A stretch of 64,000 bases of DNA from Nesterenkonia sp. Act20. GTDB taxonomy: Bacteria; Actinomycetota; Actinomycetes; Actinomycetales; Micrococcaceae. Position 1 is the first letter of the stretch. Every line of letters starts with the position of its first letter. Made by a program: the position numbers and the translations under genes. Under the pieces are notes generated by a model. That model searched no databases. It worked only from the letters and a program-made list of their open reading frames with translations, and was not told the origin of the DNA. This document shows, in pieces, positions 3,701 to 51,333 of this stretch. Where the stretch lies: NCBI RefSeq assembly GCF_019173455.1, contig NZ_JADPQH010000001.1, positions 1,268,391-1,332,390 of the forward strand. Reading direction: 5' to 3'.

Positions 3701-3703
3701 ACC

Positions 3704-8667: not shown

Positions 8668-10101
8668 TCAGCGCTTCATCACGCTGAGCGCAGGGTGGCC
8701 GGTGCCGCGGAGGAACTGTCCCACAGGGGCCAGTGCAGTGGTCGTGTCCCGGGCGGTGAACAGCTCGATGCCGCGCAGCACAGCTCCGATCACGGTGCCG
8801 GTGATCTCGAGATGCTCATAGGCAGAGATCGGATTCTTGTGCGCCAGTCCCACGGCGGAGACCACATTGGTCTCCAGCGGGTCATAGATCACCAGGTCCG
8901 CATCCTTACCCGTGGCGATGGTCCCCTTGCGAGTCAGCCCGGCCAGGGTGGAGGTGTTCTGGGCCATCCACCTGCTGACCTGCTCAAGTCCTATTCCACG
9001 CAGCCGAGCTTCATGGGCCACGGCGGAGAATCCCACCTGCAGCCCGGATATCCCGCCCCATGCCTGCTGCAGGTCAGGGGCTCCGCGGTGCTTCTCCTCG
9101 ATCGTGGAGGGCGAATGATCGCTGACCACCGCGTCGATGAGCCCCTCGCGCAGTCCCTCCCAGAGCGCCTCCCGGTTGCCGGTGTCGCGGATCGGCGGGC
9201 AGCATTTGAACTCGGCGGCCCCATCCGGGATCGAGTCGGCGTCGAAGCAGAGGTAATGAGGGCAGGTCTCTACAGAGAGCGGCAGACCTTCAGCGCGGGC
9301 CGCGCCAATGATGTCCAGAGCACGGGCGGAGGCCAGGTGCAGGATATGTGTCCGGCAGCCCGTCTCGCGGACGGCTTCGATGAGATCGCTGATCGCTGCC
9401 ACTTCGGCATCATGCGGGCGGGTGAGCGCCCAGTCCGCGTAGTGGCTGAGCCGGCGTCGTCGGCCGGTGACCTCGGTGGCACGTTCGATCGTCTCGGCAT
9501 CTTCTGCGTGGACGATCACCAGACCGTCGAATCCGGCCACTTCGGCCATCGCCTCGCGCAGCTGCTCGCCGTTCACCGGTGGGAACTCATCCACCCCGGA
9601 GGGCAGCAGGAAGCATTTGAACCCGAAGGCACCGGCTTCCCAGAGGGGCCTGAGCTGGGCGGTGTTGCCGGGGATGATCCCTCCCCAGAAGCCGACGTCC
9701 ACATAGGTCTGGCCCGCAGCGGCCTGCTGCTTGATCCGCAGCGACTCCACATCCACCGTGGGCGGGATGGAATTCAACGGCATGTCCACCACGGTGGTGA
9801 CCCCGCCCAGTGCCGCCGCCATGGTGCCGGTGGCGAAGCCCTCCCAGCTGGTGCGGCCGGGCTCGTTGATGTGGACGTGGGTGTCGACGTTGCCCGGGAG
9901 CACCTGGTGGGCGGGCCTGACCACGGTCATCCCGGCGCCGGCGCCGACGTCGCTGGCTTTAACGATCTCGGCCCGCCGCCGACCTTCGCCCGGGCTCAGC
10001 CGATGGATCCGGGCGATCTCACCGTCGAGGATCTCCAGGTGCGCGGGAAGGAACTCTCCTTCGAGCAGCACCTGCTCGGCGATGAGGTGTCGCAGCGTCA
10101 A
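8668..10101 (-). CDS. allB: Allantoinase (cyclic amidohydrolase)
   Basis: Track ORF 8668..11100 is an over-extension; probable TTG start at rc 10099-10101 overlapping the permease stop (TTGA). 478 aa; DTHVHINEPGRT metal motif, carbamylated-Lys region FKCFL, dihydroorotase/allantoinase fold. Confidence 0.75.
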   Translation of the reverse strand: MTLRHLIAEQVLLEGEFLPAHLEILDGEIARIHRLSPGEGRRRAEIVKASDVGAGAGMTVVRPAHQVLPGNVDTHVHINEPGRTSWEGFATGTMAAALGGVTTVVDMPLNSIPPTVDVESLRIKQQAAAGQTYVDVGFWGGIIPGNTAQLRPLWEAGAFGFKCFLLPSGVDEFPPVNGEQLREAMAEVAGFDGLVIVHAEDAETIERATEVTGRRRRLSHYADWALTRPHDAEVAAISDLIEAVRETGCRTHILHLASARALDIIGAARAEGLPLSVETCPHYLCFDADSIPDGAAEFKCCPPIRDTGNREALWEGLREGLIDAVVSDHSPSTIEEKHRGAPDLQQAWGGISGLQVGFSAVAHEARLRGIGLEQVSRWMAQNTSTLAGLTRKGTIATGKDADLVIYDPLETNVVSAVGLAHKNPISAYEHLEITGTVIGAVLRGIELFTARDTTTALAPVGQFLRGTGHPALSVMKR

Positions 10102-11588
10102 CGTTCTGCCTCCTTCTCGGCGAGGGTCTCGGCCCCAAGGGCGGGGGCAACGTCTGTGGTCGGTCCAGCCGTTCCCGGCATCTCCGCTCCGACTTCGGCG
10201 ACCTTCGGGGTGGTAGGGAGCACGGCGTTCAGGAGGACGGCGGCGAGCATGGCCGGCACGATGCCCGAGGTGAGCAGGAGCGCGATGTCCGGGTGGAAGG
10301 CGGCCGTGACCTCCTCGGAGGCGAAGGAGAATCCGATGCCCAGGCCCAGCGAGACGGCGACGATCAGCATGGCCCGGCGGTCGAGGACTTGGCTGCTGAC
10401 CACCTGGATCCCTGCGGAGGCCACCATGGAGAACATCACCAGCACCGCTCCGCCGAGCACGGCGTAGGGGATGGTGCTGAAGAAGGCCGCGAACTTCGGC
10501 ACGAACCCTGCCAGAAGCAGCATGCCCCCGGCCATGGCGACCACGAAGCGGCTCACGACGCCGCTGAGCACGACCACGCCGGTGTTCTGGCTGAAGGTCG
10601 TGTTGGGCATCGCACCGAAGAGCGCTCCCAGCGAAGTGCCCACCCCATCCGCCATGACGCCTCCGCTGAGCTGGCGGGAGGTGGGTGATGCCCCGACGGC
10701 GGTCCGGGAGACGGCGGTGAGATCTCCGATGGACTCCATCGAGCTGGCCAGCGCGATGACGGTGATCGCAATGATGGCGGCTCCGGTGAAGTCCATGCCG
10801 AAGTGCAGCGGGGTCGGGGCGAAGAACCAGTCCGCCTCGGCCACGGCGGCGAGGCTGACCATGCCGAAGGCTGCCGCCACGGCGTAGCCGGTGAGCAGAC
10901 CGATCAGCACTGAGGCCACGGAGAGGAAGCCCTTGCCGAACTGGTTGCACAGCACGGTCACCACGACCACCAGGGCTGCGATGCCGAAGTGGAACAGCGC
11001 CCCATAGTCCCCGGCGCTCTGCGCCGGGGCACCGCCTGCGGCGTAGTCGATGGCGGTGGGCATGAGCTTGATGCCGATGATCAGGATGATGATGCCGCAC
11101 ACCAGGGGCGGAAAGAGCCGTGAGATCCAGTGCAGGGCACCGCCGAAGATCACCTGCACGAAGCCTGCGACGAAGGCGCCGCCGAAGACCGCCGCGATGC
11201 CGAACTCCTGAGCGATGGGAATCGCCACCGCCAGGAACGCGAAGCTGGTGCCCTGCATGACGGGCAGCCGAGATCCCACGGGCCCCAGACCCAACGTCTG
11301 CAGCAGCGTGGTCACACCCGAGACGATCATGGCCAGCTGCACCAGCAGCGTGGTCTCCCCGGTGGTCATCCCGATGGCGGTGGCCACGATCAGGGGAGGC
11401 GCCGCATTGCCGACGAACATGGCCAGCAGATGCTGGACCGCCAGCGGAGCTGCGCGGTGCAGCGGGGGCAGCTCATTGACCCGGGCGACCGCCTCGGCCG
11501 CAGTGACCTGCGAAGCAGTCGCGCCGCCGTGGGTCGAGCCCTCGGCCGTATCCGTGGTGTGAGGGGAGGCAGTGGTCTCGGCAGGCAT
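10098..11588 (-). CDS. Nucleobase:cation symporter-2 (NCS2) permease, xanthine/uric acid type
   Basis: 496 aa, ~12-14 predicted TM helices, NCS2 signature regions (VLGGAVLVMF..., QNTGVVVLSGV). Confidence 0.8.
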   Translation of the reverse strand: MPAETTASPHTTDTAEGSTHGGATASQVTAAEAVARVNELPPLHRAAPLAVQHLLAMFVGNAAPPLIVATAIGMTTGETTLLVQLAMIVSGVTTLLQTLGLGPVGSRLPVMQGTSFAFLAVAIPIAQEFGIAAVFGGAFVAGFVQVIFGGALHWISRLFPPLVCGIIILIIGIKLMPTAIDYAAGGAPAQSAGDYGALFHFGIAALVVVVTVLCNQFGKGFLSVASVLIGLLTGYAVAAAFGMVSLAAVAEADWFFAPTPLHFGMDFTGAAIIAITVIALASSMESIGDLTAVSRTAVGASPTSRQLSGGVMADGVGTSLGALFGAMPNTTFSQNTGVVVLSGVVSRFVVAMAGGMLLLAGFVPKFAAFFSTIPYAVLGGAVLVMFSMVASAGIQVVSSQVLDRRAMLIVAVSLGLGIGFSFASEEVTAAFHPDIALLLTSGIVPAMLAAVLLNAVLPTTPKVAEVGAEMPGTAGPTTDVAPALGAETLAEKEAER

Positions 11589-11729: not shown

Positions 11730-12656
11730 TCAGGCGAAGCCGCCGATCCATTCCCAGGCCTGCGGTCGCGCAGGCGCTGCCCTGCGGGTGACGGAGGCGT
11801 TCATCAGACCGTAGGGGCGGTCCCCCGCCTGGAAGACCTCATTGGGGTTCTCCAGACCGAAGGGACTCAGGTCCACCACATAGTGATGATTGTTCGGCAT
11901 CACGAACCGGATGTCCTCGATCTCCTCCACTGCACCGAGCACGGCCTCGCCTGCGGCGTAGAGCGTCTGCTGCAGGGACAGCGAGTGGACCAGCGCGAAC
12001 TGCTCCATCACGATCTGCTTGACGCGCGCGTAGAGGGCGTCGAAGTCGACCTCCTGTGCGTCGATATCTGCGGCGAAGAGCCAGCGGGCGGTGATGTCCG
12101 TGGCCATCACCCGGTCCCGGGTCTCGGGCAGCGTGGTGTACCGGTCCTTCGGATACCCGGAGAACTCGCTGCCGGTGGTCTTGAGGACGGTGAGGTCGCT
12201 GAATCCGCCCATCAGGTGCTCGTCACCATCCTGGATGGTCAGCGCCGCGGTGCGGATCTCCTGCTTGGACTTCACGAAGGAGTGCTCGTGTTCGGTGAGC
12301 GCACCATCGGACCCCGGGACCTGGATCCGTTCCCAGGGGTAGGACTCAGCACTCCAGCGGCCGCCGTCGACCTCGGCATACTCGACGAAGTGGCGTCCGA
12401 GCAGCAGCAGGAACTGCTCCGGGGTGCTGATCCCGTGCTCCTTGGCGAAGGCGTAGACGGTGTTCTTCTGGGTATCGGTGGCGATGACCCTGCTGTTGTC
12501 ACCCTCGGTGTAGCAGTCGGTGAAGTCTCCACGCAGCATCGAGCTGACGTTGAGATCCATGAGCGTGTGGACCGGGGTGTCCCGGTTCACCCGGACCACG
12601 CGCACCTCGGCCTTCCCGTACTGGTTGGGGCCAAGGACGACGTCGGGACTGCTCAT
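11730..12656 (-). CDS. Urate oxidase (uricase)
   Basis: 308 aa; YGKAEVRVVRV and TQKNTVYAFAK motifs of factor-independent uricase (tunnel-fold). Confidence 0.85.
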   Translation of the reverse strand: MSSPDVVLGPNQYGKAEVRVVRVNRDTPVHTLMDLNVSSMLRGDFTDCYTEGDNSRVIATDTQKNTVYAFAKEHGISTPEQFLLLLGRHFVEYAEVDGGRWSAESYPWERIQVPGSDGALTEHEHSFVKSKQEIRTAALTIQDGDEHLMGGFSDLTVLKTTGSEFSGYPKDRYTTLPETRDRVMATDITARWLFAADIDAQEVDFDALYARVKQIVMEQFALVHSLSLQQTLYAAGEAVLGAVEEIEDIRFVMPNNHHYVVDLSPFGLENPNEVFQAGDRPYGLMNASVTRRAAPARPQAWEWIGGFA

Positions 12657-12756
12657 AGGGATGCTCCTTCAGGGGTGAGTCGGCGTGCAGGTGTCAGTGG
12701 GTGAGGCGTGCGAGGGTCGGGCGCGCGGATCCCCGAACTCGAAGGGCTGGCAATGG

Positions 12757-13083
12757 TCAGCTGCCCCGGTAGGTGCTGTAGGCGAAGGGGCTCAGCAGCA
12801 GGGGCACGTGATAATGCGCAGCCGAGGCCTCCACAGCGAAGGTCAGCGTGACCTCAGGGAAGAAGTGATCCACCGCGCGGGACGCGAAGTACTCTCCGGT
12901 GCCGAAGACGAGCCGGTGCGCACCTTCGGGCAGCGTCTCGGGTCCCAGCTCCGTGATGCGACCATCGGCGTCGGTGGTTCCGGAGGCGATCTGCGCCCCC
13001 TCGGGCCCCAGCAGCTGCACGGTGATTCCTCGTGCCGGAGTCCCGGTGGTGGTGTCCAGGACATGGGTGGTGATGAGACTCAT
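12757..13083 (-). CDS. 5-hydroxyisourate hydrolase (transthyretin-like)
   Basis: 108 aa from internal ATG of track ORF 12757..13179; MSLITTHVLDTTTG... and C-terminal YRGS tetrapeptide diagnostic of HIUase. Confidence 0.85.
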   Translation of the reverse strand: MSLITTHVLDTTTGTPARGITVQLLGPEGAQIASGTTDADGRITELGPETLPEGAHRLVFGTGEYFASRAVDHFFPEVTLTFAVEASAAHYHVPLLLSPFAYSTYRGS

Positions 13084-13111
13084 CGTGGCTCCTCTGCCTT
13101 GTTTCAATCTC

Positions 13112-13999
13112 TCAGCGTTCGAGCTCGTCGAGTTCGTCGTAGGCTTTCGCGATGGCGGAGATGCGCTTCCGGCCAGCACCGAGCTGCCGGTTGAGCACCC
13201 CGTTGGCGAGCAGACTGACCAGGGTCATCGCCGCCGCGTAGCTGTCGAAGGCACCTTCCGAGTCGATGGGGCATTCGATCCAGCAGTCGGCCTCCATGGC
13301 GTAGTGCCGGGAGGTGCTGTCGCCCAGGCAGAGGAGCTGGGCTTCGGAGGACGCCACCGCCCGGACCGCCTTGCCGAAGACCACGGGACGACGGCGGAAG
13401 CCCACCGCCACCACCAGATCCCCGGCTCCGATGCCGGCGAGCTCCTCGCCCAGGGTCTGACCGGGCTGGGGTGCGATCCGCACCCTGGGCCGGGTCTGGA
13501 TGAGCTGCTGGTGCAGATGAAGCGCCACCGGGTAGCTGTTGCGCAGCCCGAGCAGGATCACCCGTTCGGCGCTCGCGAGCATCTCCACCGCCTGTTGAAG
13601 CCTGCCATCGGCCAAGCCTGCGGTCAGCCGCGCGAGGTTATCGTGGTCGCGCGCCTCGTGACGCTGCATTCCGGTGGAGCCTTCGGTGTCGGCGGAGGTC
13701 ACCGGCGCAGCTGTGGGGACTCCTCGGCTGCGCAGCGCGCGAGCGTGATCTTTGACCTCGCGGAAGTCCTCGAAGTCGAGCTTGCGGAACAGCCGAGATA
13801 CCGTGGCCTTCGAGACGCCCGTCTCGCGACTGATATCTGCTGCGGAGAAGATGGCCAGGTCGCCCAAATGCTCCAGCAGGAAGTCAGCCACTCGCCGCTC
13901 CTGCGGGGCCAGCGCCCCGTAGTGGGCGTCGATCCGGGCGTCGATGCGCGTCTCGGGTTCGAGCGGGGGCTGGTTCGCGGCCTCCGGTGGCGGGGTCAT
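13112..13999 (-). CDS. RpiR/MurR-family transcriptional regulator (HTH_6 + SIS domain)
   Basis: 295 aa; N-terminal HTH (AADISRETGVSKATVSRLFRKLDF), C-terminal SIS sugar-phosphate-binding domain; ATGA overlap with upstream allC. Confidence 0.75.
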   Translation of the reverse strand: MTPPPEAANQPPLEPETRIDARIDAHYGALAPQERRVADFLLEHLGDLAIFSAADISRETGVSKATVSRLFRKLDFEDFREVKDHARALRSRGVPTAAPVTSADTEGSTGMQRHEARDHDNLARLTAGLADGRLQQAVEMLASAERVILLGLRNSYPVALHLHQQLIQTRPRVRIAPQPGQTLGEELAGIGAGDLVVAVGFRRRPVVFGKAVRAVASSEAQLLCLGDSTSRHYAMEADCWIECPIDSEGAFDSYAAAMTLVSLLANGVLNRQLGAGRKRISAIAKAYDELDELER

Positions 14000-15249
14000 C
14001 GTCCTGCTCGCTCTCCGTGCTCACGTGCAAGCACCCAGACAGCTTCTTGCAGCGCCTGCAGAGCCAATGCCACATCGGCGGAGATGACGTTCTCCTCCGG
14101 GTGGTGGCTGATGCCGTCCTCGCAGCGGGTGAAGAGCATGCCGATCTCCGTCACCGCCGCCATCGCCATGGCGTCGTGCCCAGCACGCGAGTACAGGGTG
14201 ATCGGGTCGGCGTCCCCGGTGGCGGCCACGCCGGCCGCGAGCGCTCGCGTCATCCGCGGCGAGCAGCCCACGGTGGACGCGGCGTGGATCTCTTCGACCA
14301 CCAGCTCCAAGCTGCGCTGGGCGCAGAACCGGCTCAGCGCAGCGTGGATCTCCTGCCAGGCGGTGTCACGGAGCTCATCAGATTCGGCGCGCAGGTCCAG
14401 GGAGAAGTCGGCCTCTCCCGGCACGACGTTCACCGCACCGGGACGGGTCTCCAGCTGACCGACCGTGGCGATAACACCGCGCTCACGGCCGATCCGTTCC
14501 ACGTCCAGGACTGCCTGAGCGGCCCCGACCAGTGCGTCCCGCCGGCGTTCATAGGGGGTGCCCCCGGCATGCCGGGCCTCACCGAGGATGGCGAGCCGAA
14601 AGCGGCGCGCCCCGGCGATGGAGCTGACCAGCCCCAAGGCCCGATCGGCCGCTTCGAGAGAGGGGCCCTGCTCGATATGGGCTTCGAGGTAGCCGACCAG
14701 ATCCTCAGGCGCCCGGGCGGCGTCGTCGACCTTCTCTGGATCCAGGCCGAAGTCCCAGAAGGCCTGAGCCATGCTGATCCCCTCGGCGTCCACGGCCTCC
14801 CACCAGGCGGGGTCCCAGGTGCCCGCCATGGCACGTGATCCCAGCAGGGTCGCGCCGAACCGGGTGCCCTCCTCATCGGCGAAGGCGATGATCTCCACGG
14901 CGAAGGGAAGGTCCTTCGCGTAGGGGGCCAGCAGACGGACCGTCTCGATTCCCAGCAGCACACCCATGATGCCGTCATAGCGTCCGGCATCGGGAACGGT
15001 GTCGAGGTGGGAGGCGATGATCAGCGCCGGCAGGCCGGGCTCGCGACCCTCGAGCCGAGCACACTGGTTGCCTGCGGCGTCCTGCCAGGTCTCCATCCCC
15101 ACCTCGGCCATCCACGCCGCGGCGAGTGCATTGTGCCGCTGGTGCTCTTCGGTCAGGTAGGCGCGCAGGATCCCGTCGGGGAGAGCGCTGATCGCGGCAA
15201 GCTCGTCACAGCGGGTCATGATGCGGTCGGCCGCAGCGTCGAGGGTCAC
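13996..15249 (-). CDS. allC: Allantoate amidohydrolase (M20 family, AllC-like)
   Basis: 417 aa M20/M28 peptidase-like with dimerisation insert; strongest resemblance to allantoate amidohydrolase/N-carbamoyl-amino-acid hydrolases; context. Confidence 0.7.
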   Translation of the reverse strand: MTLDAAADRIMTRCDELAAISALPDGILRAYLTEEHQRHNALAAAWMAEVGMETWQDAAGNQCARLEGREPGLPALIIASHLDTVPDAGRYDGIMGVLLGIETVRLLAPYAKDLPFAVEIIAFADEEGTRFGATLLGSRAMAGTWDPAWWEAVDAEGISMAQAFWDFGLDPEKVDDAARAPEDLVGYLEAHIEQGPSLEAADRALGLVSSIAGARRFRLAILGEARHAGGTPYERRRDALVGAAQAVLDVERIGRERGVIATVGQLETRPGAVNVVPGEADFSLDLRAESDELRDTAWQEIHAALSRFCAQRSLELVVEEIHAASTVGCSPRMTRALAAGVAATGDADPITLYSRAGHDAMAMAAVTEIGMLFTRCEDGISHHPEENVISADVALALQALQEAVWVLAREHGERAGR

Positions 15250-16613
15250 GGGGAGACCTCCCGAGACTCCAGGGGCCGATCGAACTGCCCAGGCTGGTGG
15301 AGCTGGTCGGACTGACCGGGCTGCCCGGGCTGGTCGAGCTGGTCGAGCTGGTCGAGCTGGTCGAGCTGCCCCGCCTGCCCGCGAGTCGACTGTTCCTGGT
15401 AGATCTCTGCCGCGGCTCCGGTGCCGCCGCCGGCGCGGACCTCAGCGCCACCAGCGCGCAACACCTGTTCCAGCGCCGCGAGGGTGAGCATCACGGCGTC
15501 CTTGCGGGCGTTATAGCCCATGGTGCCGATGCGCCAGACCTTCCCGTGCAGCGGCCCGAAGCTGGTGCCGATCTCGATGCCGTAGTCCTGGAGCATGGCC
15601 GAACGGGCGGCGTCGCCATCGATCCCTGCAGGGATCTCCACGGCGACCACGTTGTTCATCTTGTGCGTGACGTCCCCGAAGACCGCCAGCCCGAGCCCCC
15701 GGACTCCCGCCAGCATGGCCTGGCCATGGAGCTCATGACGGGCGACGGCGGCGTCGATCCCCTCGTCCAGCAGCAGTCGAGCACATTCACGCGCCCCGTA
15801 GAGCATGGAGGTTGCCTCGGTGTGGTGGTTCAGCCGCTGGGGGCCCCAGTAGTCCATGATCATCGCCAGATCGAAGTAGTTCGAGGCGATTCTGGTGCCG
15901 CGGCCTGCAGTGCCGTCGGCGATGCCTGCCTCGACATGCCGACGAGAACGGATGACGTCCACGGCGCGCGGGGAGAGGGTGATCGGCGCCGAACCAGAGG
16001 GTCCCCCGAGGCATTTCTGCAGTCCGGCCGTGACAGCGTCGATCTTCCATGCATCGGCGGAGAACTCATTGCCTGCCAGAGAGGCCGTCACGTCGGTGTA
16101 GAACAGCACGTCGTGGCGCTGGCAGATCTCACCGATGCCGGCGAGCGGCTGATTCATCGTGGTGGAGGTGTCCCCCTGGACGAGAGCAAGCAGCGTGGGC
16201 CGCTCCTCGATGATGGCCGCCTCGATCTCCTCTGGCGTGAAGACCTGGCCCCAGGTCTTCTCGCGGACCGCGACCTCAGCTCCGGCGCGCACGGCGATCT
16301 CGGCGAGCAGGTGACCGAACCGTCCGAAGATCGGCACGAGCACCTTCGAACCGGGCTCGATCAGCGAGACCAGAGCCGCTTCGATGCCGGCCCGGGAAGT
16401 GCCGTCCACCAGGAACGTCGCCTCGTTGTTGGTCTTGAAGACTCCGCGGTAGAGCTCCATGACCTCGTTCATATAACCGGTCATCGCGGGATCATATTGG
16501 CCCACGAGCTGAGCCGACATGGCACGCAGCACGCGCGGATCGGCGTTGATCGGGCCCGGCCCCATGAGCAGCCGGGGTGGCGGATTGATCTGGCGGGAGC
16601 TCATGAGGACCAT
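15246..16613 (-). CDS. Class V (PLP) aminotransferase, PucG-like (S)-ureidoglycine-glyoxylate / alanine-glyoxylate aminotransferase, with repetitive (QLD)n/(PGQ)n C-terminal tail
   Basis: 455 aa; AGT-family fold (SRQINPPPRLLMGPGPIN... , lysine region GLQKCLGGPSG); C-terminal ~55 aa low-complexity tail encoded by a 9-bp tandem array. Confidence 0.7.
   Translation of the reverse strand: MVLMSSRQINPPPRLLMGPGPINADPRVLRAMSAQLVGQYDPAMTGYMNEVMELYRGVFKTNNEATFLVDGTSRAGIEAALVSLIEPGSKVLVPIFGRFGHLLAEIAVRAGAEVAVREKTWGQVFTPEEIEAAIIEERPTLLALVQGDTSTTMNQPLAGIGEICQRHDVLFYTDVTASLAGNEFSADAWKIDAVTAGLQKCLGGPSGSAPITLSPRAVDVIRSRRHVEAGIADGTAGRGTRIASNYFDLAMIMDYWGPQRLNHHTEATSMLYGARECARLLLDEGIDAAVARHELHGQAMLAGVRGLGLAVFGDVTHKMNNVVAVEIPAGIDGDAARSAMLQDYGIEIGTSFGPLHGKVWRIGTMGYNARKDAVMLTLAALEQVLRAGGAEVRAGGGTGAAAEIYQEQSTRGQAGQLDQLDQLDQLDQPGQPGQSDQLHQPGQFDRPLESREVSP
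15294..15383. repeat. 9-bp tandem repeat array (ctgNNcNNN x10; four perfect ctggtcgag copies at 15330-15365) inside the aminotransferase 3' end
   Basis: Read directly: ctggtggag ctggtcgga ctgaccggg ctgcccggg (ctggtcgag)x4 ctgccccgc ctgcccgcg; in-frame, encodes ...QLDQLDQLDQLDQPGQPGQ... Confidence 0.9.
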
Positions 16614-16656
16614 GCTACTGAAACTATTGTTTCATTCGTGAAACAGGTGCGTATCG

Positions 16657-17151
16657 TCATGAGACGACCTGCTCCAGTCGCAGCACTGCGATCTCGGCGA
16701 GCTGCTCGCGTCGGACGACGGCCTCTTCCTCCTCGGTGTTCTGCAGGCGAAGTTCGAGCTGGGTGCGCATCTCACGGTCTGATCGGCCTGCGGCGCGGAT
16801 CAGGAAGATCCGGTCGAAGCGCTGTTCGTAGGCCTCATTGGCGCTGATCCACTCCGCCTGGGCGGTCTCATCGGCGCCGAGGCTTCCCTGTTCTCGTCGG
16901 GAGGCCTCGGCTTCCCGGGAGGAGCCCTGCACCTTCTCTCCGATCCGCGGGTGATGTTCGAGCGCGCCGTCGACCTCGAGGTCGGTCCAGTCCTGTGCGA
17001 GCTCCGCGGCGGTGGTGGTCAGCTCCGCGACGCTCTCGTAGGGCCTCCGGGCGAGGAGCGCGGCGCGCCAGGAGGGAATGGGCGCGCAGGCGGCGAGCGT
17101 CTCCGTCAGCTCCTCCGGGGTGGCCGCATTGAATTCGCTGAGCTTCATCAT
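16657..17151 (-). CDS. uraD: OHCU decarboxylase (2-oxo-4-hydroxy-4-carboxy-5-ureidoimidazoline decarboxylase)
   Basis: 164 aa (MMKLSEFNAATPEELTETLAACAPIPSW...HPRIGE...); lies in the C-terminal part of the artefactual 618-aa track ORF 16657..18513; ATGA overlap with the amidase stop. Confidence 0.75.
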   Translation of the reverse strand: MMKLSEFNAATPEELTETLAACAPIPSWRAALLARRPYESVAELTTTAAELAQDWTDLEVDGALEHHPRIGEKVQGSSREAEASRREQGSLGADETAQAEWISANEAYEQRFDRIFLIRAAGRSDREMRTQLELRLQNTEEEEAVVRREQLAEIAVLRLEQVVS

Positions 17152-18395
17152 CGGATCTCCTGTGTCGACGGCAGCCGGGCGTGGAACTCCTGCGCCCAGC
17201 GGATGAGTGCACGGTCGCTCCCGGCAGCCCCGAGCAGGCAGACGCCGGTGGGAAGTCCCGCTGCCGTGCGCAGCGGGACATTGACCGCGGGCAGCCCGGC
17301 CAGACCGGCCAGGCAGGTGAGCATCATGGTGCCGCGGCGGTGTTCCTCGATGACTTCTCCGCCCAGTGCGGCCTCGCTGCGCAGCGGTGCGGGACCGGCC
17401 GCCGAGGGAAGCGCCAGCACGGAATCGCCGACCCAGTCGCGGATGATTCGGCGTGCCCCGGCGGCCAGCGCCCGGGCCTGCCGCTCCTGATCTGCGGTGA
17501 ACTGGCGGGCCGTGCGGAACCGCGCGCCGACGTCGTCGGCCATCGCCTCCCAGTGGGTGCTGACCCATTCGCCGTGGTTGGCCCAGGCCTCGCGCATCTG
17601 GATGATGCGGAAGGCCTCGAACCAGGCGGCGTGCATCTCCGGGGAGACGCCGGCGATCCGCCTCAGGTGCAGGCGTGGTGGCAGGGCGCTCGGAGGCGCG
17701 GTCACACCGTCCACGGCGGTGCGCACGGCGTCGGCGACCTCCGGCTCCACCTGATCGAAGAGGCCGGGGAGGAGCGTGAGCTCTTCCGGGAGTGCGGCGG
17801 GCTGCTCCGTCTCCGCGCCGGCGGGCAGGAGCACCTCGGCCACGAGGCTCAGCGTCGCGGCGTCGCGGGTCATCCAGCCCACCGCGTCGAAGCTCTGCGC
17901 AAGTGGCAGCAGACCCTCGCGGGAGATGGCGCCGTGGGTGCTGCGTATGCCCCAGAGCCCCTGGTAGGAGGCGGGCACGCGGATCGACCCACCGGTGTCG
18001 GTTCCCAGCCCGATGCTCACCTGACCCAGTGCGACGGCGGCGGCGGAGCCCGAGCTGGACCCCCCGCTGATCCGGTCGGGGGCCGCCGGGTTCGGCGGTG
18101 TCCCGTAGTGCTGATTGGTTCCGGCCAGGGAGAGTGCGAACTCGTCGGTCTGCGCGATCCCGGTGATCGCGGCGCCTGCCTCGAGCAGCTGTCTCACGGG
18201 GGGCGCGGTGCTGGTCTGCTCGGGGGCCTCGGCCAGCCAGGCGGGGTTGCCGGCACCGATGCTGTGTCCCGCAATCGCGTAGAGGTCCTTGACGGCGACG
18301 TTCTGCCCGCCCAGCGGTCCGGTTCCGGAAGACGGGATCAGCGGGGCATCGGGGTCCCCACCCACCCGCCAGATCGTGGGCTCTGCTGTGCTCAT
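17148..18395 (-). CDS. Amidase-signature (AS) family amidase
   Basis: 415 aa with GGSSSGSAAAVA AS-signature and catalytic Ser-cisSer-Lys context (KDLYAIAG). Confidence 0.7.
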   Translation of the reverse strand: MSTAEPTIWRVGGDPDAPLIPSSGTGPLGGQNVAVKDLYAIAGHSIGAGNPAWLAEAPEQTSTAPPVRQLLEAGAAITGIAQTDEFALSLAGTNQHYGTPPNPAAPDRISGGSSSGSAAAVALGQVSIGLGTDTGGSIRVPASYQGLWGIRSTHGAISREGLLPLAQSFDAVGWMTRDAATLSLVAEVLLPAGAETEQPAALPEELTLLPGLFDQVEPEVADAVRTAVDGVTAPPSALPPRLHLRRIAGVSPEMHAAWFEAFRIIQMREAWANHGEWVSTHWEAMADDVGARFRTARQFTADQERQARALAAGARRIIRDWVGDSVLALPSAAGPAPLRSEAALGGEVIEEHRRGTMMLTCLAGLAGLPAVNVPLRTAAGLPTGVCLLGAAGSDRALIRWAQEFHARLPSTQEIR

Positions 18396-19486
18396 CGCAG
18401 CTCCGCGAAGTCTCGGACGGCCACCCGCGCGTGGACTCCTTTGACCAGGTCGACCACCTGGGAGATGTTGAAGTCCGTGGCCGCGGAGAGATAGGCGTAG
18501 GCATGCTCTGCATCGAGGCCCCAGCGGGCCTGCAGCAGCACGATCGCGTTGCGCACGCAGTTCTGCACGGCGATGTCCAGGTCCTCGTCCATCCCGGTGG
18601 GGATGAGGAACTCCGCGGTCTCGGCCAGCGGCCCGATCTGTTCGCCGAAGGCGGCCAAGGCCTGTTCCCGAGGGATGACCTCGAAGCTCAGCAGCCCGCG
18701 CAGGGAGGCCTCCATCGCGGTGAGCGCGACCTCGCCGTCGCCCTGGGCGAAGTGGGGATCGCCCACGTAGGCCAGCGCGCCGGGCACCTGCACGGGCAGG
18801 TAGAGCGAAGTTCCCTCGGTGAGCATCTTGATGTCGATATTGCCGCCGTGGGCCCCCGGCGGCACGGAATGGGGACGGGCCTCCCCCGCTACCGCCACCC
18901 CGATGGTCCCGAAGAAGGGAGCCAGCTCGAAGCTCAGCAGCCTCTCCGCTCCGGTGCGCGGGGCCATACGGCCGCGAGCCTGACCCTGACCGGCCTCTTC
19001 CACGGCGGCGAAGATCGAGACGTTGCGTTCTCCGCGCGGGTACTCCCCGTTGAGCGCTCCCTTGCCGTGGCGGTTGGAGATGATGCCGTAGGGGACGCGG
19101 CGCTGCAGCTGCTTGATGGTCACCTTGAGCAGGTCGCCCGGCATGGCGCCCTCGACATGGAGGGGGCCGGTGTTCACGTGCGGGCCGTCGACGGCGGGGT
19201 CTCGCGGGTGGTCGCTTGCTGCGAGCGCGATCGCGTCGGTGAGCACCTGATCCTCGGGCACGCCGTGTCCGCCGAAATAGGCCAGCGGGTCCCGTCCCTG
19301 ATCCTCGAGAATGCCCTCATGAGAGAGTGTGTCGATGACGACCTGCTCACCGGACTCGATGTGCAGCGCCGGCTCATCGGCGGCGCAGGGCAGCCTCCCC
19401 CAGAAGATGTTCTCCGGGCGCGCCGGGAGGTAGCGGGCACCCTCGGGCAGGTGTTCGCCGGGCTGCAGGATGGGCTGCGGGCTCAT
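18392..19486 (-). CDS. Acetamidase/formamidase (FmdA/AmdA)-family hydrolase; first gene of the long minus-strand operon
   Basis: 364 aa; FmdA_AmdA fold motifs (HGGNIDIKMLTEGTSLYLPV, GDPHFAQGDGE); ATGA overlap with amidase start. Confidence 0.7.
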   Translation of the reverse strand: MSPQPILQPGEHLPEGARYLPARPENIFWGRLPCAADEPALHIESGEQVVIDTLSHEGILEDQGRDPLAYFGGHGVPEDQVLTDAIALAASDHPRDPAVDGPHVNTGPLHVEGAMPGDLLKVTIKQLQRRVPYGIISNRHGKGALNGEYPRGERNVSIFAAVEEAGQGQARGRMAPRTGAERLLSFELAPFFGTIGVAVAGEARPHSVPPGAHGGNIDIKMLTEGTSLYLPVQVPGALAYVGDPHFAQGDGEVALTAMEASLRGLLSFEVIPREQALAAFGEQIGPLAETAEFLIPTGMDEDLDIAVQNCVRNAIVLLQARWGLDAEHAYAYLSAATDFNISQVVDLVKGVHARVAVRDFAELR

Positions 19487-19560
19487 GGATCACTCTCCTC
19501 GTTCCGATCAGTCTGCCCGATCAGGTGTTACAGCAGAGTGACATCTCTGGAATGTCCGTT

Positions 19561-44264: not shown

Positions 44265-45920
44265 CTACGCTATCCACACAGTCGCGTCAGGGTTCAAAAG
44301 ACCATCGGTCAACGCATCAGGGACCGACATCAAGATCACTTCACCCGCTGGCAGCGCAGCAGGCGCAGTGGAGAGGTTTGCCACCACTGTCACCTCACCC
44401 ACGCGGAACTCGAGAACGTCCTCGAGGGAATCGCTTTCCCCCCTCCCCGTCCCCCACGTCAGGTCAGATCCAGCGAGGGCGTAGTCACGCCGCATAGCAA
44501 GCGTTGTTCGGTAGAAGGAGAGAGTCGAATCCGACTCCTTCTCCTGAAGATCAACGGCGAGTGCCCCGAAGCTCTCGGGCTGCGGCAGCCAAGTGCGCGG
44601 CGATGAAGAAAACCCGAAAGCCACGTCATCGGCGCGCCAAGGAAGGGGCACACGACAACCATCGCGACCCCGGATGGCATGGCCAGATCGCTCCCACACC
44701 GGATCCTGACGGACCTCATCGGGAAGCATCGTGGCCTCCGGGAGGCCGAGTTCTTCCCCTTGGTAGAGGTAAGCGGAACCCGGCAGGGCTAGCATTATGG
44801 CGGTCGCGGCGCGTGCACGGCGCAGGCCGAGGGCATCGTCAGGTTGAGGATCCTCTGGACCCACACCTGCTTCGAGGTTCACCGGGCCCTGGTATCCGAA
44901 GCGGCTCGCATGTCGCATCACATCGTGGTTGGAGAGCACCCAGGTAGTCGGGGCGCCCACCGCTTCATTCGCAGCAAGGGATGTGGCGATGGTCTCACGG
45001 ATCTCAGCGCAGTCCCATGGCAGAGACAGGTAGGCGAAGTTGAAGGCCTGGTGCATCTCCCCCTCACGGACTATGCGCGCAGTCCGCTCCGGGGGGAGCC
45101 ATGCCTCTGCACATAGGATTCTGGTGCCGGAATAGCTGTCGAGAATCTCTCGCCAATGGCGGAAGATGTCGTGGATGCCCTCCTGGTCCCACATCGGTGG
45201 CATGAGGCCATCTATGGGCTCGACCACACCGTGAGCCGCGTGCGGCCAGCTGGGGAGGCCCGGAGCCTTCACCATGGCGTCGCATACATCGACTCTGAAC
45301 CCGTCGACGTCGCGGTCCAGCCAGAATCTCAGCGTCGTGTCGAACTCGGACCGCACCCGGGGGTTGTCCCAGTTCCAATCGGGCTGACCAGAGTCGAAGA
45401 GATGCAGATACCACTGACCCGGGGTCCCATCGGCTTCGGTGACCCGTGTCCACGCGGGGCCGCCGAACATGCTCTCCCAATCATTCGGTGGAAGCGACCC
45501 CTCGGGCCCCGTCCCCTCTTTGAAATGGAAGAGGGACCGCTCAGGGCTCCCCGGCGCCGCGGCGAGTGCCTCTTTGAACAGCACGTGCTCCCAGGAGCAG
45601 TGGTTGGGCACAAGGTCAACGATTACTCTCAGTCCCAGCTCATGAGCCCGGTCGACCATCTCATCGAAGTCAGCGAGGGTTCCGTACCTTTCGTCGACGT
45701 CGCGGTAGTCGGCCACGTCGTAGCCCCCGTCACGTTGCGGGGACGGATAGAAGGGGGACAACCACACGGCGTCCGCCCCCAGATCCGCGACATGGCTGAG
45801 TCGCTGGGAGATTCCTCTCAGATCGCCGGTTCCGTCGCCGTCGCTGTCGGCGAACGAGCGGGGGTAGACCTGGTAGATGACGGCCGTGCGCCACCATTCG
45901 GAGTCGTTGATGTCGATCAT
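44265..45920 (-). CDS. GH13 alpha-glucosidase / oligo-1,6-glucosidase-like
   Basis: 551 aa; GH13 regions (DLVPNHCS, GFRVDVCD, catalytic EAW..). Confidence 0.8.
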   Translation of the reverse strand: MIDINDSEWWRTAVIYQVYPRSFADSDGDGTGDLRGISQRLSHVADLGADAVWLSPFYPSPQRDGGYDVADYRDVDERYGTLADFDEMVDRAHELGLRVIVDLVPNHCSWEHVLFKEALAAAPGSPERSLFHFKEGTGPEGSLPPNDWESMFGGPAWTRVTEADGTPGQWYLHLFDSGQPDWNWDNPRVRSEFDTTLRFWLDRDVDGFRVDVCDAMVKAPGLPSWPHAAHGVVEPIDGLMPPMWDQEGIHDIFRHWREILDSYSGTRILCAEAWLPPERTARIVREGEMHQAFNFAYLSLPWDCAEIRETIATSLAANEAVGAPTTWVLSNHDVMRHASRFGYQGPVNLEAGVGPEDPQPDDALGLRRARAATAIMLALPGSAYLYQGEELGLPEATMLPDEVRQDPVWERSGHAIRGRDGCRVPLPWRADDVAFGFSSSPRTWLPQPESFGALAVDLQEKESDSTLSFYRTTLAMRRDYALAGSDLTWGTGRGESDSLEDVLEFRVGEVTVVANLSTAPAALPAGEVILMSVPDALTDGLLNPDATVWIA

Positions 45921-46777
45921 GCAGTGAGGGTTCCCTTTCGGTACAAGTCAGGTCGTCGGTCGGCAAGCAGACCGTTGTGCGGGGAGATTGATTTGTCCTC
46001 GGCGAGATGAAGCGAGAGTGACGCACGGGCGACCGGGCGGGCCCCCGAAGCGTCTGGAACATCGGCCACAACCCAACCGTATTGACTCACGATCACGGTG
46101 GCTTCGTTCCACGATTGACCCCGCTCAATCCCGGCTCGATCACAGCAGGCGATAAAGACGCCGTTGGTCCGCGCCGCCGCTTGAGCTGCGATCACCTCGG
46201 CAGCACGCTCGGCCACGGGATGCTCTCCCGAGGGCCAATTCGTGGGGACAGCGATGAGATCAGCCCCTGCGAGAGCGAGGAGCCGCGGCATCTCGGGAAA
46301 CTCCATGTCGTAGCAGATCAACAGGCCTATCCTGCCGTGCACCGTGTCAACCACGGGAGGCAGATCATTCCCCGGCTCGAATACCTGGGTCTCGCGATCC
46401 CAGAGATGCGTCTTTCGATAGACCGCGCTCACACCGTCGGCGTCGATCAACGCCGCACTGTTGTAGAGCACCTCACCCCCGTCCTCGCAGAACCCCACGA
46501 CGACAACCAGCGAAGTACCTCCAAGCGCCGCGGAAGTCTCGGCGAAGAAGGGGTGATCCGTGGTCATTGCGACGCTGCGAGCCTCCGCCCGGCTCCTGAA
46601 CACATAGCCCGACGTGGACAGTTCGGGCAGCACGAGAACATCCGTTCCGTCGGAACAGGCTTCCGCGACTGCCTCGCCGATCAGGGTGAGATTTCCTTCG
46701 AGGTCACCCACCATGGGTGTGAGCTGGTGACACGCGACATTCGTCAGCTTCCGCTCAAGAGCAGCACCCGGACTCAT
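45917..46777 (-). CDS. Carbon-nitrogen hydrolase family (nitrilase/amidase superfamily)
   Basis: 286 aa; E-K-C triad context (LPELSTSGY, RKTHLW, LLICYDMEFPE); ATGA overlap with glucosidase start. Confidence 0.75.
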   Translation of the reverse strand: MSPGAALERKLTNVACHQLTPMVGDLEGNLTLIGEAVAEACSDGTDVLVLPELSTSGYVFRSRAEARSVAMTTDHPFFAETSAALGGTSLVVVVGFCEDGGEVLYNSAALIDADGVSAVYRKTHLWDRETQVFEPGNDLPPVVDTVHGRIGLLICYDMEFPEMPRLLALAGADLIAVPTNWPSGEHPVAERAAEVIAAQAAARTNGVFIACCDRAGIERGQSWNEATVIVSQYGWVVADVPDASGARPVARASLSLHLAEDKSISPHNGLLADRRPDLYRKGTLTA

Positions 46778-47580
46778 TTGACGGCCCCTTCGGTGATCCC
46801 AGAGATGAGGCGACGCTGCAGCACCACATAGGCGCTGACGATCGGCAGCGCCACGAGGACTGCCGCGGCAGCTGTGATGTTCGGGTCGGAAGCACGAGCG
46901 GCGCCAGAGAAGAAGGACAAAGCTAGCGGCGCCGTCTGGACGGCTTCGTTCTGGGGAACAAGGATCAAGGCGAGGAGGAATTCATTCCAGGTGAAGAGGA
47001 ACAAGATGGTCACCAAAGTAGCGATTGCCGGTCCCGCGATGGGCATCAGCACACTCCTGAAGATGATGAACCTCGACGCCCCGTCCATCCGCGCCGCTTC
47101 CAAGAGTTCCTTGGGCACGGACGCGAAGAACGCACGCATCCAGAACACTCCTAACGGTACGGAGAGGCCGATCTGGGGCAATATGAGAGCGAGATATGTG
47201 TCGATGAGATTCCAGTCTGCCAACATCTGATAGAGCGGCAAGACGGTGACCTCATACGGAAGCACCAACCCCAGCAGCATCGCGCCCAGCATGATCTTGA
47301 CCCCGGGGACCCTCATGTGGGCCATGGCATAGCCAGCCAAACAGGCCACGGCGACGGTCACAGCGACGACGGCGGTGGTCACCAAGGCGCTTGAGGCCAG
47401 TGCCGATCCGAAGCCGCCTCTCGTCCACGCCTCGGCGTAGTTCGCGAACGTGAGAGACCCAGAGGAGTCCGATCCACGGAGCGAGGAAATCACAATTGAG
47501 AGGAACGGGAAGACGGCGATGGCCGTTGCGATGAGGAGGAGAGTATGGGTGATGACAACTTCGCTGCGTGCAACCTTCAT
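46774..47580 (-). CDS. ABC transporter permease (carbohydrate, MalG-like)
   Basis: 268 aa, 6 TM, EAA loop (EAARMDGASRFIIFRSVLMP). Confidence 0.8.
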   Translation of the reverse strand: MKVARSEVVITHTLLLIATAIAVFPFLSIVISSLRGSDSSGSLTFANYAEAWTRGGFGSALASSALVTTAVVAVTVAVACLAGYAMAHMRVPGVKIMLGAMLLGLVLPYEVTVLPLYQMLADWNLIDTYLALILPQIGLSVPLGVFWMRAFFASVPKELLEAARMDGASRFIIFRSVLMPIAGPAIATLVTILFLFTWNEFLLALILVPQNEAVQTAPLALSFFSGAARASDPNITAAAAVLVALPIVSAYVVLQRRLISGITEGAVK

Positions 47581-48566
47581 GAGTTTCTCTCCTCCTTGCC
47601 GGGGGCCTGCGCCGGCTCCGGCGTCGAGCGTGGAGCTCGGTCGGGCGACTCTCGCAGCGCAAGCTGAACGATGCCGACGATCACCAAGGTGAGCACGGTA
47701 AGCACAACCGCCAGCGCCGAAGCCTCCCCGAGCAATCTGTTCTGGAACGCGTCCTGGTAGATGTAGACGCTGGGGACGGCCGTAGAGGTGCCGGGGCCGC
47801 CCTGAGTGGTGTTCCAGATCAGATCGAAGTTCCTCAGCGCGAACGTGATGGTGAGAATCAGTGCGATAGATATCTGCGGGCGCAGGGATGGCAGAGTGAT
47901 GCTGACGAACTCTCGGATGGGACCCGCGCCGTCAAGCCGCGCAGCCTCGTACAGCGAACGGTCGATCGAGGCGATGCCGGAGAGGAAGAGCAGCATGCAC
48001 AACCCGTACTCCACCCAGGTTCCTATCCCGCCGATGGCTGGCAGCGCAGTGCCGAAATCTCCGAGCCAGGCACGCGTGATCGACCCAAGACCGACAGCGC
48101 GCAGAGTCTCGTTGAGCGGTCCATCGATCGCGAGAATATCTCGCCACGAGACAGCAACGACCACGCTCGAAAGGATCTGCGGGAGGAACAACAGCGCCCT
48201 GAACCAGGTCAACCCGTAGATCCTGATCCGAGACATGAGCCCCGCAAGAAAGAGACCAATGACCACAGGAAGGGCCGCATAGAAGAACAGCAGCACCAAG
48301 GAGTGGCTGAGCGCCTCTCTCATGGCCGGATTGGTGAAGACCTCCACGTAGTTCGAGAAGCCAACCGGAGTTGCCGCGGTGATGCCGTCCCAGCGGTAGA
48401 AGGAGATTCGCACCGACTGCACGATCGGGACGATCACAAACACGATGAAGAACGCCAGCGCGGGCGCGACATAGAACAACGAGGACCAGGAGTATCTGGA
48501 TGAACCCTGCCTGCGTCGCTTCGAAGAAGCCTCGGGTCTTTTCGCTTCGGCCCTCGACACGGTCAT
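47577..48566 (-). CDS. ABC transporter permease (carbohydrate, MalF-like)
   Basis: 329 aa, EAA loop (EAARLDGAGPIREFVSITLP). Confidence 0.8.
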   Translation of the reverse strand: MTVSRAEAKRPEASSKRRRQGSSRYSWSSLFYVAPALAFFIVFVIVPIVQSVRISFYRWDGITAATPVGFSNYVEVFTNPAMREALSHSLVLLFFYAALPVVIGLFLAGLMSRIRIYGLTWFRALLFLPQILSSVVVAVSWRDILAIDGPLNETLRAVGLGSITRAWLGDFGTALPAIGGIGTWVEYGLCMLLFLSGIASIDRSLYEAARLDGAGPIREFVSITLPSLRPQISIALILTITFALRNFDLIWNTTQGGPGTSTAVPSVYIYQDAFQNRLLGEASALAVVLTVLTLVIVGIVQLALRESPDRAPRSTPEPAQAPGKEERNS

Positions 48567-51261: not shown

Positions 51262-51333
51262 GAACCCGACTATTCCGGGTTGGAAGATGAAGGACAACTG
51301 CAGGTTTTCAACGGATTCCTATAGCCTGAAGCT

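Follow-up and report, generated by a model that had tools for sequence, protein, structure and literature searches.

A candidate oxalurate-to-oxalate branch in a purine-catabolic gene cluster of Nesterenkonia sp. Act20, formed by an amidase-signature protein and an FmdA-like protein

We analyzed a 64 kb window of high-G+C DNA from Nesterenkonia sp. Act20 (68% G+C genome), in which two adjoining genes for amide hydrolases lie within a purine-catabolic gene cluster. One encodes an amidase-signature (AS) protein of the PRK08310 subfamily, the other a protein of the FmdA_AmdA family (FmdA-like protein). Gene context and analogy with known enzymes suggest, with a probability of roughly 0.6 for both assignments together, that the AS protein deamidates oxalurate and that the FmdA-like protein hydrolyzes oxamate. 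To our knowledge, no part of bacterial purine catabolism is less settled than what becomes of oxalurate and oxamate, and the only organism we know of in which the hydrolytic oxalurate route has been worked out is Klebsiella, and there in part. Oxamic transcarbamylase was identified only in 2024.

Judged by the predicted proteins, the window encodes the whole route that leads up to oxalurate. Urate would be converted to allantoin by uricase, HIU hydrolase, and UraD, and allantoin to allantoate by allantoinase; AllC would release (S)-ureidoglycine, NH3, and CO2 from allantoate, and an HpxJ/PucG-type aminotransferase would form oxalurate. The aminotransferase matches the Klebsiella ureidoglycine-glyoxylate aminotransferase HpxJ (PDB 3NNK) with 600 bits and B. 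subtilis PucG (3ISL) with 449 bits, and it shares 68–70% identity with Klebsiella HpxJ. On sequence grounds it is a true HpxJ/PucG orthologue, in line with the PucG-type enzyme named in an earlier first-pass annotation of this DNA. The RpiR-type protein of the cluster is 39% identical to Klebsiella HpxU over its full length (E 1e-73). An HPX-type cluster is recognized by genes for an allantoate amidohydrolase, a ureidoglycine aminotransferase, and an RpiR-type regulator lying together, which is the case here. The first-pass annotation had furthermore described two amide hydrolases of different folds with 415 and 364 aa, and their coordinates, lengths, and Pfam families were confirmed; both sequences show 100% identity to proteins of Nesterenkonia sp. 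Act20. The FmdA-like and AS genes overlap by ATGA at 18392–18395, and the AS gene and uraD overlap in the same way at 17148–17151, so that the coupling to uraD claimed earlier could be read directly from the DNA.

Gene neighborhoods were collected in two samples. For the first, an alignment of 18 FmdA-like orthologues was scanned against one GTDB genome per species, which returned 573 places with an FmdA-like relative. The best 80 of these 573 (63–85% identity) were kept, selected by similarity to the FmdA-like protein alone and blind to gene context, and ±10 kb were viewed in each genome; in 64 of the 80 loci, at least 6 kb of sequence were available downstream. The loci belong to Micrococcaceae, Microbacteriaceae, Dermabacteraceae, Cellulomonadaceae, Promicromonosporaceae, Sanguibacteraceae, Nocardioidaceae, and Propionibacteriaceae. 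The second sample, independent of the first, was obtained by using the aminotransferase as query against annotated records of plasmids and chromids. Homologue searches with the two amidases at E ≤ 1e-10 gave 6,063 and 7,580 matches.

An AS gene lies directly 3' of the FmdA-like gene in 77 of the 80 loci and in all 64 loci with sufficient downstream sequence. The aminotransferase gene is present in 69 loci (60 of the 64), and the AllC gene in 65 (59 of the 64). The most common order is FmdA-like gene, AS gene, aminotransferase gene, AllC gene. Co-occurrence with pucG across genomes, which the first-pass annotation had suggested as a check, is thus clearly positive, and its proposal that the pair comprises candidates for an oxalurate amidohydrolase and an oxamate amidase is strongly backed by gene neighborhoods across phyla. 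A conserved predicted membrane protein of about 255 aa, which is not encoded in the window, directly adjoins the FmdA/AS pair in 17 loci (L004 9200–9892, L007 9060–9854, L024 8242–8982, L027 12209–13075, and 13 more); a role in the transport of an intermediate or end product of the pathway is conceivable.

The second sample revealed that the aminotransferase is accompanied by interchangeable modules. In Klebsiella (L089), the place of an oxalurate-processing enzyme is taken by HpxX, the AtzE-type HpxY, and HpxZ, and that of an oxamate-processing enzyme by the GGT-type HpxW; the record lists hpxZ, HpxY ("AtzE family amidohydrolase"), hpxX, a GGT-like open reading frame, hpxU, an ABC transporter, hpxJ, and an AllC homologue. 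Sphingobium and Novosphingobium (L097, L096) carry AtzE, with HpxZ nearby, for the first step and a GGT-type protein for the second, arranged as AtzE, GGT, (AllC,) aminotransferase, and HpxZ. Zymomonas (L091) has AtzH, a DUF4089 protein, and AtzE for the oxalurate step and nothing for the oxamate step. In Pseudoalteromonas (L090; NF006169 374 bits) and Photobacterium (L095), a PRK08310-type amidase occupies the oxalurate position and is followed by a GGT-type protein in the oxamate position, the aminotransferase, and AllC. Bacillus sp. CMF21 (L092) combines a PRK08310-type amidase with a protein of the fumarylacetoacetate hydrolase (FAH) family and has no enzyme in the oxamate position. The same is true of Enterococcus gilvus (L093) for the oxamate position, with AllFGH and AllK, together with AllE and AllD, on the oxalurate side.

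These arrangements can be read against the functions assigned to the Klebsiella proteins. HpxY, an AS amidase of the AtzE type, is named as oxalurate amidohydrolase in PMC12625717, which cites Huynh & Stewart 2023, and HpxW, of the GGT/Ntn-hydrolase family, has been characterized as an oxamate amidohydrolase (Hicks & Ealick 2016, cited in PMC5270733). The partners of HpxY carry the NCBI names "oxalurate catabolism protein HpxX/HpxZ", and hpxXYZ were described as homologues of AtzG/AtzE/AtzH located near hpxW and the Klebsiella purine genes (PMC6219798). Since PRK08310-type amidases stand beside a GGT-type enzyme, they would fill the oxalurate position held by HpxXYZ, and the FmdA-like protein would therefore fill that of GGT/HpxW.

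The AS protein itself is a regular member of its family. It matches PF01425 (Amidase) over residues 25–397 with 194.3 bits (cut-off 27) and passes the equivalog model NF006169 (PRK08310) with 402.5 bits (cut-off 391), covering profile positions 19–392 of 395. The motifs of the Ser-cisSer-Lys triad are intact, i.e., VKDL at 35 (K36), GGSSSGS at 111–117, and TDTGGSIR at 132–139 (S137). The protein could be aligned to the solved structure 2DC0; its best PDB match reached only 127 bits, so that no close homologue is present there. It does not belong to the AtzE/HpxY family (NF006631, 180 bits against a cut-off of 461; TIGR02715, 168 against 426), Klebsiella HpxY scores 773 bits on NF006631, and a BLASTP alignment of the two proteins is confined to the catalytic core. 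The PRK08310 cut-off is also passed by the Rhodococcus and Streptomyces relatives, and for the relatives from Pseudoalteromonas and from loci L007 and L036, PRK08310 is by far the best model, with scores just under the cut-off. The AS protein shares 35% identity over its full length with the Pseudoalteromonas amidase beside the GGT, aminotransferase, and AllC genes, and 39% with the Bacillus sp. CMF21 amidase beside the AllC and aminotransferase genes. A tblastn search with the 61-aa Klebsiella HpxX found no AtzG/HpxX-type (DUF4089) partner in the window or the 80 loci, the short query limiting its sensitivity. Assignment of the AS protein as GatA was rejected, as its score lies far under the cut-off, gatB and gatC are lacking, and the context is purine catabolism.

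A further indication of the reaction comes from a domain that most relatives of the AS protein carry. In most loci, about 400 nt separate the end of the FmdA-like gene from the start of AS similarity, and an AtzH-like domain (PF11533) forms the N-terminal part of the AS protein in 65 of 80 loci, always in frame. The fused domain also matches NCBIfam NF033625 ("oxalurate catabolism protein HpxZ"). The two fusion proteins examined measure 516–541 aa (L036 11092–12717, from Isoptericola, and L007 11064–12614), and alignment with Pseudomonas AtzH (6BJT) revealed conservation of Tyr22, Arg46, and Arg73, of which Tyr22 and Arg46 are required for AtzH catalysis (PMC6219798). AtzH has an NTF2 fold and strips the N-carboxyl group that is left once AtzE has deamidated a ureido-type compound (PMC6219798). 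Fusion of such a domain to the amidase therefore makes it likely that the AS domain deamidates a ureido group. The AS proteins of Nesterenkonia, including the one in the window, begin at the linker and lack the AtzH-like domain, and no AtzH/HpxZ-like sequence, stand-alone HpxZ included, was found anywhere in the window. Amidases without the domain also occur in some Arthrobacter, two Cryobacterium, and two Microbacterium loci, among others. This distribution suggests that the AtzH-like domain was lost repeatedly; by the same comparison, the AS protein of the window is a truncated version of the form found in most relatives.

Based on these observations, the following route can be proposed. Like AtzE and AtzF with their substrates, the PRK08310-type AS protein would deamidate oxalurate by hydrolysis at the terminal amide of its ureido group, yielding NH3 and N-carboxy-oxamate, and N-carboxy-oxamate would lose CO2 to give oxamate, a step that the fused AtzH/HpxZ-like domain would perform in most relatives. 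In Nesterenkonia, decarboxylation would presumably be spontaneous or carried out by an unlinked protein. On this route, loss of the domain would be tolerable because decarboxylation of N-carboxy-oxamate can give oxamate only; in the cyanuric acid pathway, uncatalyzed breakdown ends in dead ends (PMC6219798). The FmdA-like enzyme would then convert oxamate and water to oxalate and NH3, in the position held by HpxW in Klebsiella. Along the entire route, the four nitrogens of the ring would all be set free, with neither urea nor urease nor carbamoyl phosphate involved. As a side observation, the PRK08310-type amidase gene on the Bacillus sp. CMF21 plasmid (L092 11685–13741) overlaps stop to start with the gene for the FAH-family protein, beside allC and a PucG-like gene. 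Because N-carboxy-oxamate is an aza-analogue of oxaloacetate, this FAH-family protein might be a decarboxylase that replaces AtzH/HpxZ.

The FmdA-like protein matches PF03069 (FmdA_AmdA) in Pfam with 115 bits (cut-off 27), and its orthologues are 63–89% identical across Micrococcales and Propionibacteriales. PDB sequence matches were 3B9T, 2II1, 3TKK, 2F4L, 5UBU, and 2WKN, the best with 103 bits, and structure-based alignments gave 22–27% identity to solved structures. Foldseek neighbors of the AlphaFold model were FmdA-family structures only (E 2e-19 to 6e-15). The motifs GGNID and GDPHFAQGDGE, common to FmdA-family structures, are invariant in the subfamily, and several subfamily-invariant Arg and His residues (e.g., R130, R139, H140, R204, and H206) are unmatched in the alignments with 2II1 and 3B9T. 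The protein shares the fold, the GGNxD and GDxHxxxGDGE motifs, and, by analogy, small-amide substrates with formamidase and acetamidase (FmdA, AmdA) and with the Delftia gamma-lactamase; however, unlike these, its subfamily sits in a fixed purine-catabolic context. Pfam detected no GGT domain, and any relation to HpxW is one of functional analogy only. Formamidase was tried as an assignment and rejected (NF045496 equivalog, 81.4 bits against a cut-off of 500). Plasmid-borne FmdA homologues from Acinetobacter and Palleronia (47–48% identity) lie in unrelated contexts and were uninformative.

Alternative ureido substrates have to be considered for the AS protein. With or without the AtzH-like domain, it could deamidate ureidoglycolate, ureidoglycine, or allophanate, for instance to supply the glyoxylate acceptor of the aminotransferase, with the FmdA-like protein acting on another small amide. 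As a point in favor of the oxalurate reading, no competing enzymes are apparent: homologues of AllE, AllA, AllD, AllFGH, AllK, gcl/hyi/glxR/glxK, and HpxX were lacking in both the window and the 80 loci. The lack of a homologue of ureidoglycine aminohydrolase or of ureidoglycolate lyase, hydrolase, or dehydrogenase in the window or related loci speaks for a different ureido substrate, as it leaves the glyoxylate source of the aminotransferase not evident. In addition, allophanate hydrolase and AtzE are among the AS relatives, and deamidation followed by decarboxylation would be chemically workable on ureidoglycolate as well. However, PRK08310-type amidases accompany the aminotransferase in three phyla and replace HpxXYZ, whose partners bear the oxalurate-related NCBI names. 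Allophanate hydrolase, in particular, was rejected: the AS protein scores 169 bits against cut-offs of 511 (TIGR02713) and 487 (NF006043), and with 415 aa it lacks the C-terminal domain of the type enzyme, which has about 600 aa in total. We therefore consider another ureido substrate unlikely.

Several points weigh against oxalurate and oxamate as the substrates of the pair. The joint assignment is drawn from context and from analogy with AtzE/AtzH and HpxW, the link of HpxXYZ to oxalurate is known to us through NCBI names and the second-hand citation in PMC12625717, and the role of the FmdA-like protein was reached by elimination. The AlphaFold model of this protein has a mean pLDDT of 72, with the lowest values at the conserved catalytic loops; because of this low confidence, it confirms the family fold only and is uninformative on the active site. 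Oxamate need not be degraded further, because the Zymomonas and Bacillus clusters lack an oxamate amidase. Moreover, no oxalate-handling genes were recognized in the window or among the conserved neighbors. In three loci, all from Subtercola (L019, L031, and L035), the aminotransferase gene comes directly after the FmdA-like gene, and the locus contains no AS gene.

This retention of the FmdA-like protein without an AS protein would also fit an exchange of roles, in which the FmdA-like protein acts on oxalurate (giving oxamate and carbamate, or oxalate and urea) and the AS protein on oxamate. Both are amidohydrolases from subfamilies in which we found no characterized member, and the FmdA-like protein is the better conserved of the two and more constantly tied to the aminotransferase. 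With exchanged roles, however, Pseudoalteromonas and Photobacterium, which combine a PRK08310-type amidase with a GGT-type enzyme, would possess two oxamate amidases and no enzyme for oxalurate. Furthermore, fusion of the AtzH-like domain to the AS protein is sensible only if the latter yields an N-carboxylated product, i.e., deamidates the ureido group. An exchange thus appears very improbable.

FmdA/AS pairs also exist outside purine clusters, so the pair may act more broadly or on another substrate. On a Rhodococcus plasmid (L081 8980–11606), such a pair lies amid monooxygenase and ABC transporter genes, with an FmdA partner of 62% identity and an amidase that carries the AtzH-like domain; in Streptomyces (L086 6516–9335), the FmdA partner has 476 aa, 44% identity, and a Tat signal. 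Together with the formamidases, acetamidases, and gamma-lactamase that make up the characterized or named part of the FmdA family, these pairs would be in line with a generic two-step scavenging of amides or diamides (formamide, short-chain amides, oxamide, or biuret-like compounds) by enzymes that merely lie beside purine genes. Against this stand the gene order, conserved across several families and in the majority of the 80 loci, the translational coupling of the amidase genes to uraD in the window, and the score on the formamidase model far under its cut-off. We consider generic scavenging to have little probability, and hydrolysis of oxalurate by the AS protein and of oxamate by the FmdA-like protein is the preferred assignment.

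According to the first-pass annotation, the two amidase genes head the same operon as the aminotransferase gene. The ATGA overlaps support this for the stretch down to uraD; continuity beyond it is less clear. The gap between uraD and the aminotransferase gene measures 43 nt and contains a perfect AT-rich palindrome, TGTTTCA-TTCG-TGAAACA, located 15–32 nt 5' of the aminotransferase start codon (Table 1). It is the sole match in the 64 kb, with 0.02 expected by chance. Related sites with the pattern GTTTCA/GTwACA-N4-TGAAAC were found in other Nesterenkonia, Brachybacterium, Agreia, and Subtercola, where they are located 5' of the aminotransferase gene, and in the divergent uraD/allB region in Microbacterium. 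The palindrome is probably the operator of a purine-catabolism regulator, which would be the HpxU-like RpiR protein, or another regulator in Microbacterium. As it resembles an operator, transcription of the aminotransferase unit may be started and regulated separately. On the other side, metX lies upstream of the FmdA-like gene on the same strand at a distance of 74 nt. A consensus scan of 12600–19700 revealed no promoter-like or terminator-like site, the sigma-70 consensus being poorly suited to 68% G+C. Because of the 43-nt gap with its palindrome, the nearby metX, and the empty scan, co-transcription of both amidase genes with the aminotransferase gene is only plausible. Downstream, the aminotransferase and allC genes overlap by GTGA, and allC and rpiR by ATGA.

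Table 1. Features of the purine-catabolic gene cluster in the 64 kb window of Nesterenkonia sp. Act20. Functions are predictions.
Feature	Position	Strand	Remarks
FmdA_AmdA-family amidase	18392..19486	-	364 aa, without signal peptide; candidate oxamate amidohydrolase
AS amidase, PRK08310 subfamily	17148..18395	-	415 aa; candidate oxalurate amidohydrolase
OHCU decarboxylase UraD	16657..17151	-	164 aa; PF09349 123 bits; TIGR03180 149 bits (cut-off 139)
Palindrome, candidate operator	16628..16645	.	uraD/aminotransferase gap
(S)-ureidoglycine aminotransferase, HpxJ/PucG orthologue	15246..16613	-	455 aa; class-V aminotransferase; PDB matches
Allantoate amidohydrolase (AllC/HpxK type)	13996..15249	-	417 aa; NF006775 530 bits (cut-off 479)
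RpiR/MurR-family regulator, HpxU-like	13112..13999	-	295 aa; HTH_6 and SIS domains
HIU hydrolase	12757..13179	-	
Uricase	11730..12656	-	
Xanthine permease	10098..11588	-	
Allantoinase	8668..about 10167	-	
Xanthine dehydrogenase	3701-7702	+	single open reading frame, ~1,330 aa; FAD-binding, two [2Fe-2S], and molybdopterin domains

With 455 aa, the aminotransferase of the window is longer than its counterparts from Pseudoalteromonas and Klebsiella (409–413 aa). It ends in a C-terminal (QLD)n/(QPG)n low-complexity tail (15280–15368), encoded by a 9-nt tandem repeat (15293–15368) with 8.4 copies and the + strand consensus GCTGGTCGA; the tail terminates in the GTGA overlap with allC. The opposite side of the cluster encodes a guanine-deaminase-like amidohydrolase and the fused xanthine dehydrogenase, which is flanked by XdhC and a MobA-like nucleotidyltransferase. 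Elsewhere in the window, the G+C content drops to 0.61–0.63 between 44000 and 54000, compared to 0.65–0.70 in most other parts. This region contains five overlapping minus-strand open reading frames (45917..51297), which a sixth abuts at 44265..45920, and the run was perhaps acquired as an operon. Other parts of the window include genes for phenylacetate catabolism (PaaA/PaaC-like proteins, a reductase, a PaaK-like ligase, and a PaaZ-like aldehyde dehydrogenase-MaoC fusion), a GMC oxidoreductase, and an aldehyde dehydrogenase.

Comparison with known systems helps to place the proposed branch. It resembles the Klebsiella HPX system in its context of RpiR regulator, aminotransferase, and allantoate amidohydrolase, and the proposed chemistry would be alike, leading from oxalurate via oxamate to oxalate with release of two NH3 and one CO2. 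An AS-family protein would take the first step in both, and an AtzH/HpxZ-like module is present in most actinobacterial relatives as well. However, the AS protein of the window belongs to the PRK08310 and not the AtzE subfamily and has no small subunit of the AtzG/HpxX type; the AtzH-like module is separate in Klebsiella, fused in the actinobacterial relatives, and absent from the window; and the second enzyme is of the FmdA_AmdA family here and of the GGT family there, with unrelated folds. Regarding GGT/HpxW, no homologue was found in the window, and one distant match occurred among the 80 loci (L053). The proposed branch would also share its logic with AtzE-AtzG-AtzH from the cyanuric acid pathway of Pseudomonas sp. 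ADP, in which an AS protein deamidates a ureido- or biuret-type compound at its terminal amide and AtzH subsequently removes the N-carboxyl group. In contrast to the window, the substrate of AtzE-AtzG-AtzH is 1-carboxybiuret instead of (as proposed) oxalurate, the amidase is of another AS subfamily, and AtzG and AtzH are present. The third system, oxamic transcarbamylase AllFGH with a carbamate kinase, AllK, is the oxalurate route of E. coli (PMC11326118) and is also encoded in Enterococcus. It likewise uses oxalurate and yields oxamate, and it is linked to the same aminotransferase in Enterococcus gilvus. Unlike the proposed branch, it is phosphorolytic, ATP-yielding, and composed of unrelated proteins, and oxamate is excreted instead of hydrolyzed (PMC11326118).

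A wider reading follows in four parts, which we put forward tentatively, since as a whole it falls slightly short of even odds. With the actinobacterial FmdA-like subfamily, the acetamidase/formamidase fold would include an oxamate amidohydrolase for the first time. PRK08310 would constitute a second, independently recruited and AtzG-free lineage of oxalurate amidohydrolases in Actinomycetota, Gammaproteobacteria, and Bacilli. N-carboxy-oxamate would be decarboxylated by a fused AtzH-like domain, by a FAH-family protein (Bacillus), or without an accessory protein (Nesterenkonia). The oxalurate branch would thus be modular, assembled at least three times from different parts.

For the HPX pathway, the chemistry and the action of an AS amidase on oxalurate have been known or proposed before. 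The statement in the first-pass annotation that no such assignment had been made for these families therefore does not hold for the AS family as a whole, given the precedent of HpxY in PMC12625717, but it appears to stand for the FmdA_AmdA family and the PRK08310 subfamily. A full-text literature search, outside of which the Huynh & Stewart 2023 review lay, found no link of the FmdA family or PRK08310 to oxamate or oxalurate. Placement of the FmdA_AmdA family at the oxamate step and of PRK08310 as a second oxalurate lineage in three phyla appears to be new, as does the AtzH-like domain fused to the AS protein in most Actinobacteria and lost in Nesterenkonia.

If the proposed assignments are true, two large protein families that are annotated merely as "amidase" and "acetamidase/formamidase family protein" would gain a specific function. 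The assignments would account for the way in which many Actinobacteria from soil or associated with plants regain all four nitrogens of purines without a urease, and a short pathway would become a clear example of non-orthologous displacement and of domain fusion or loss. Metabolic reconstruction for actinobacterial taxa would be improved accordingly.

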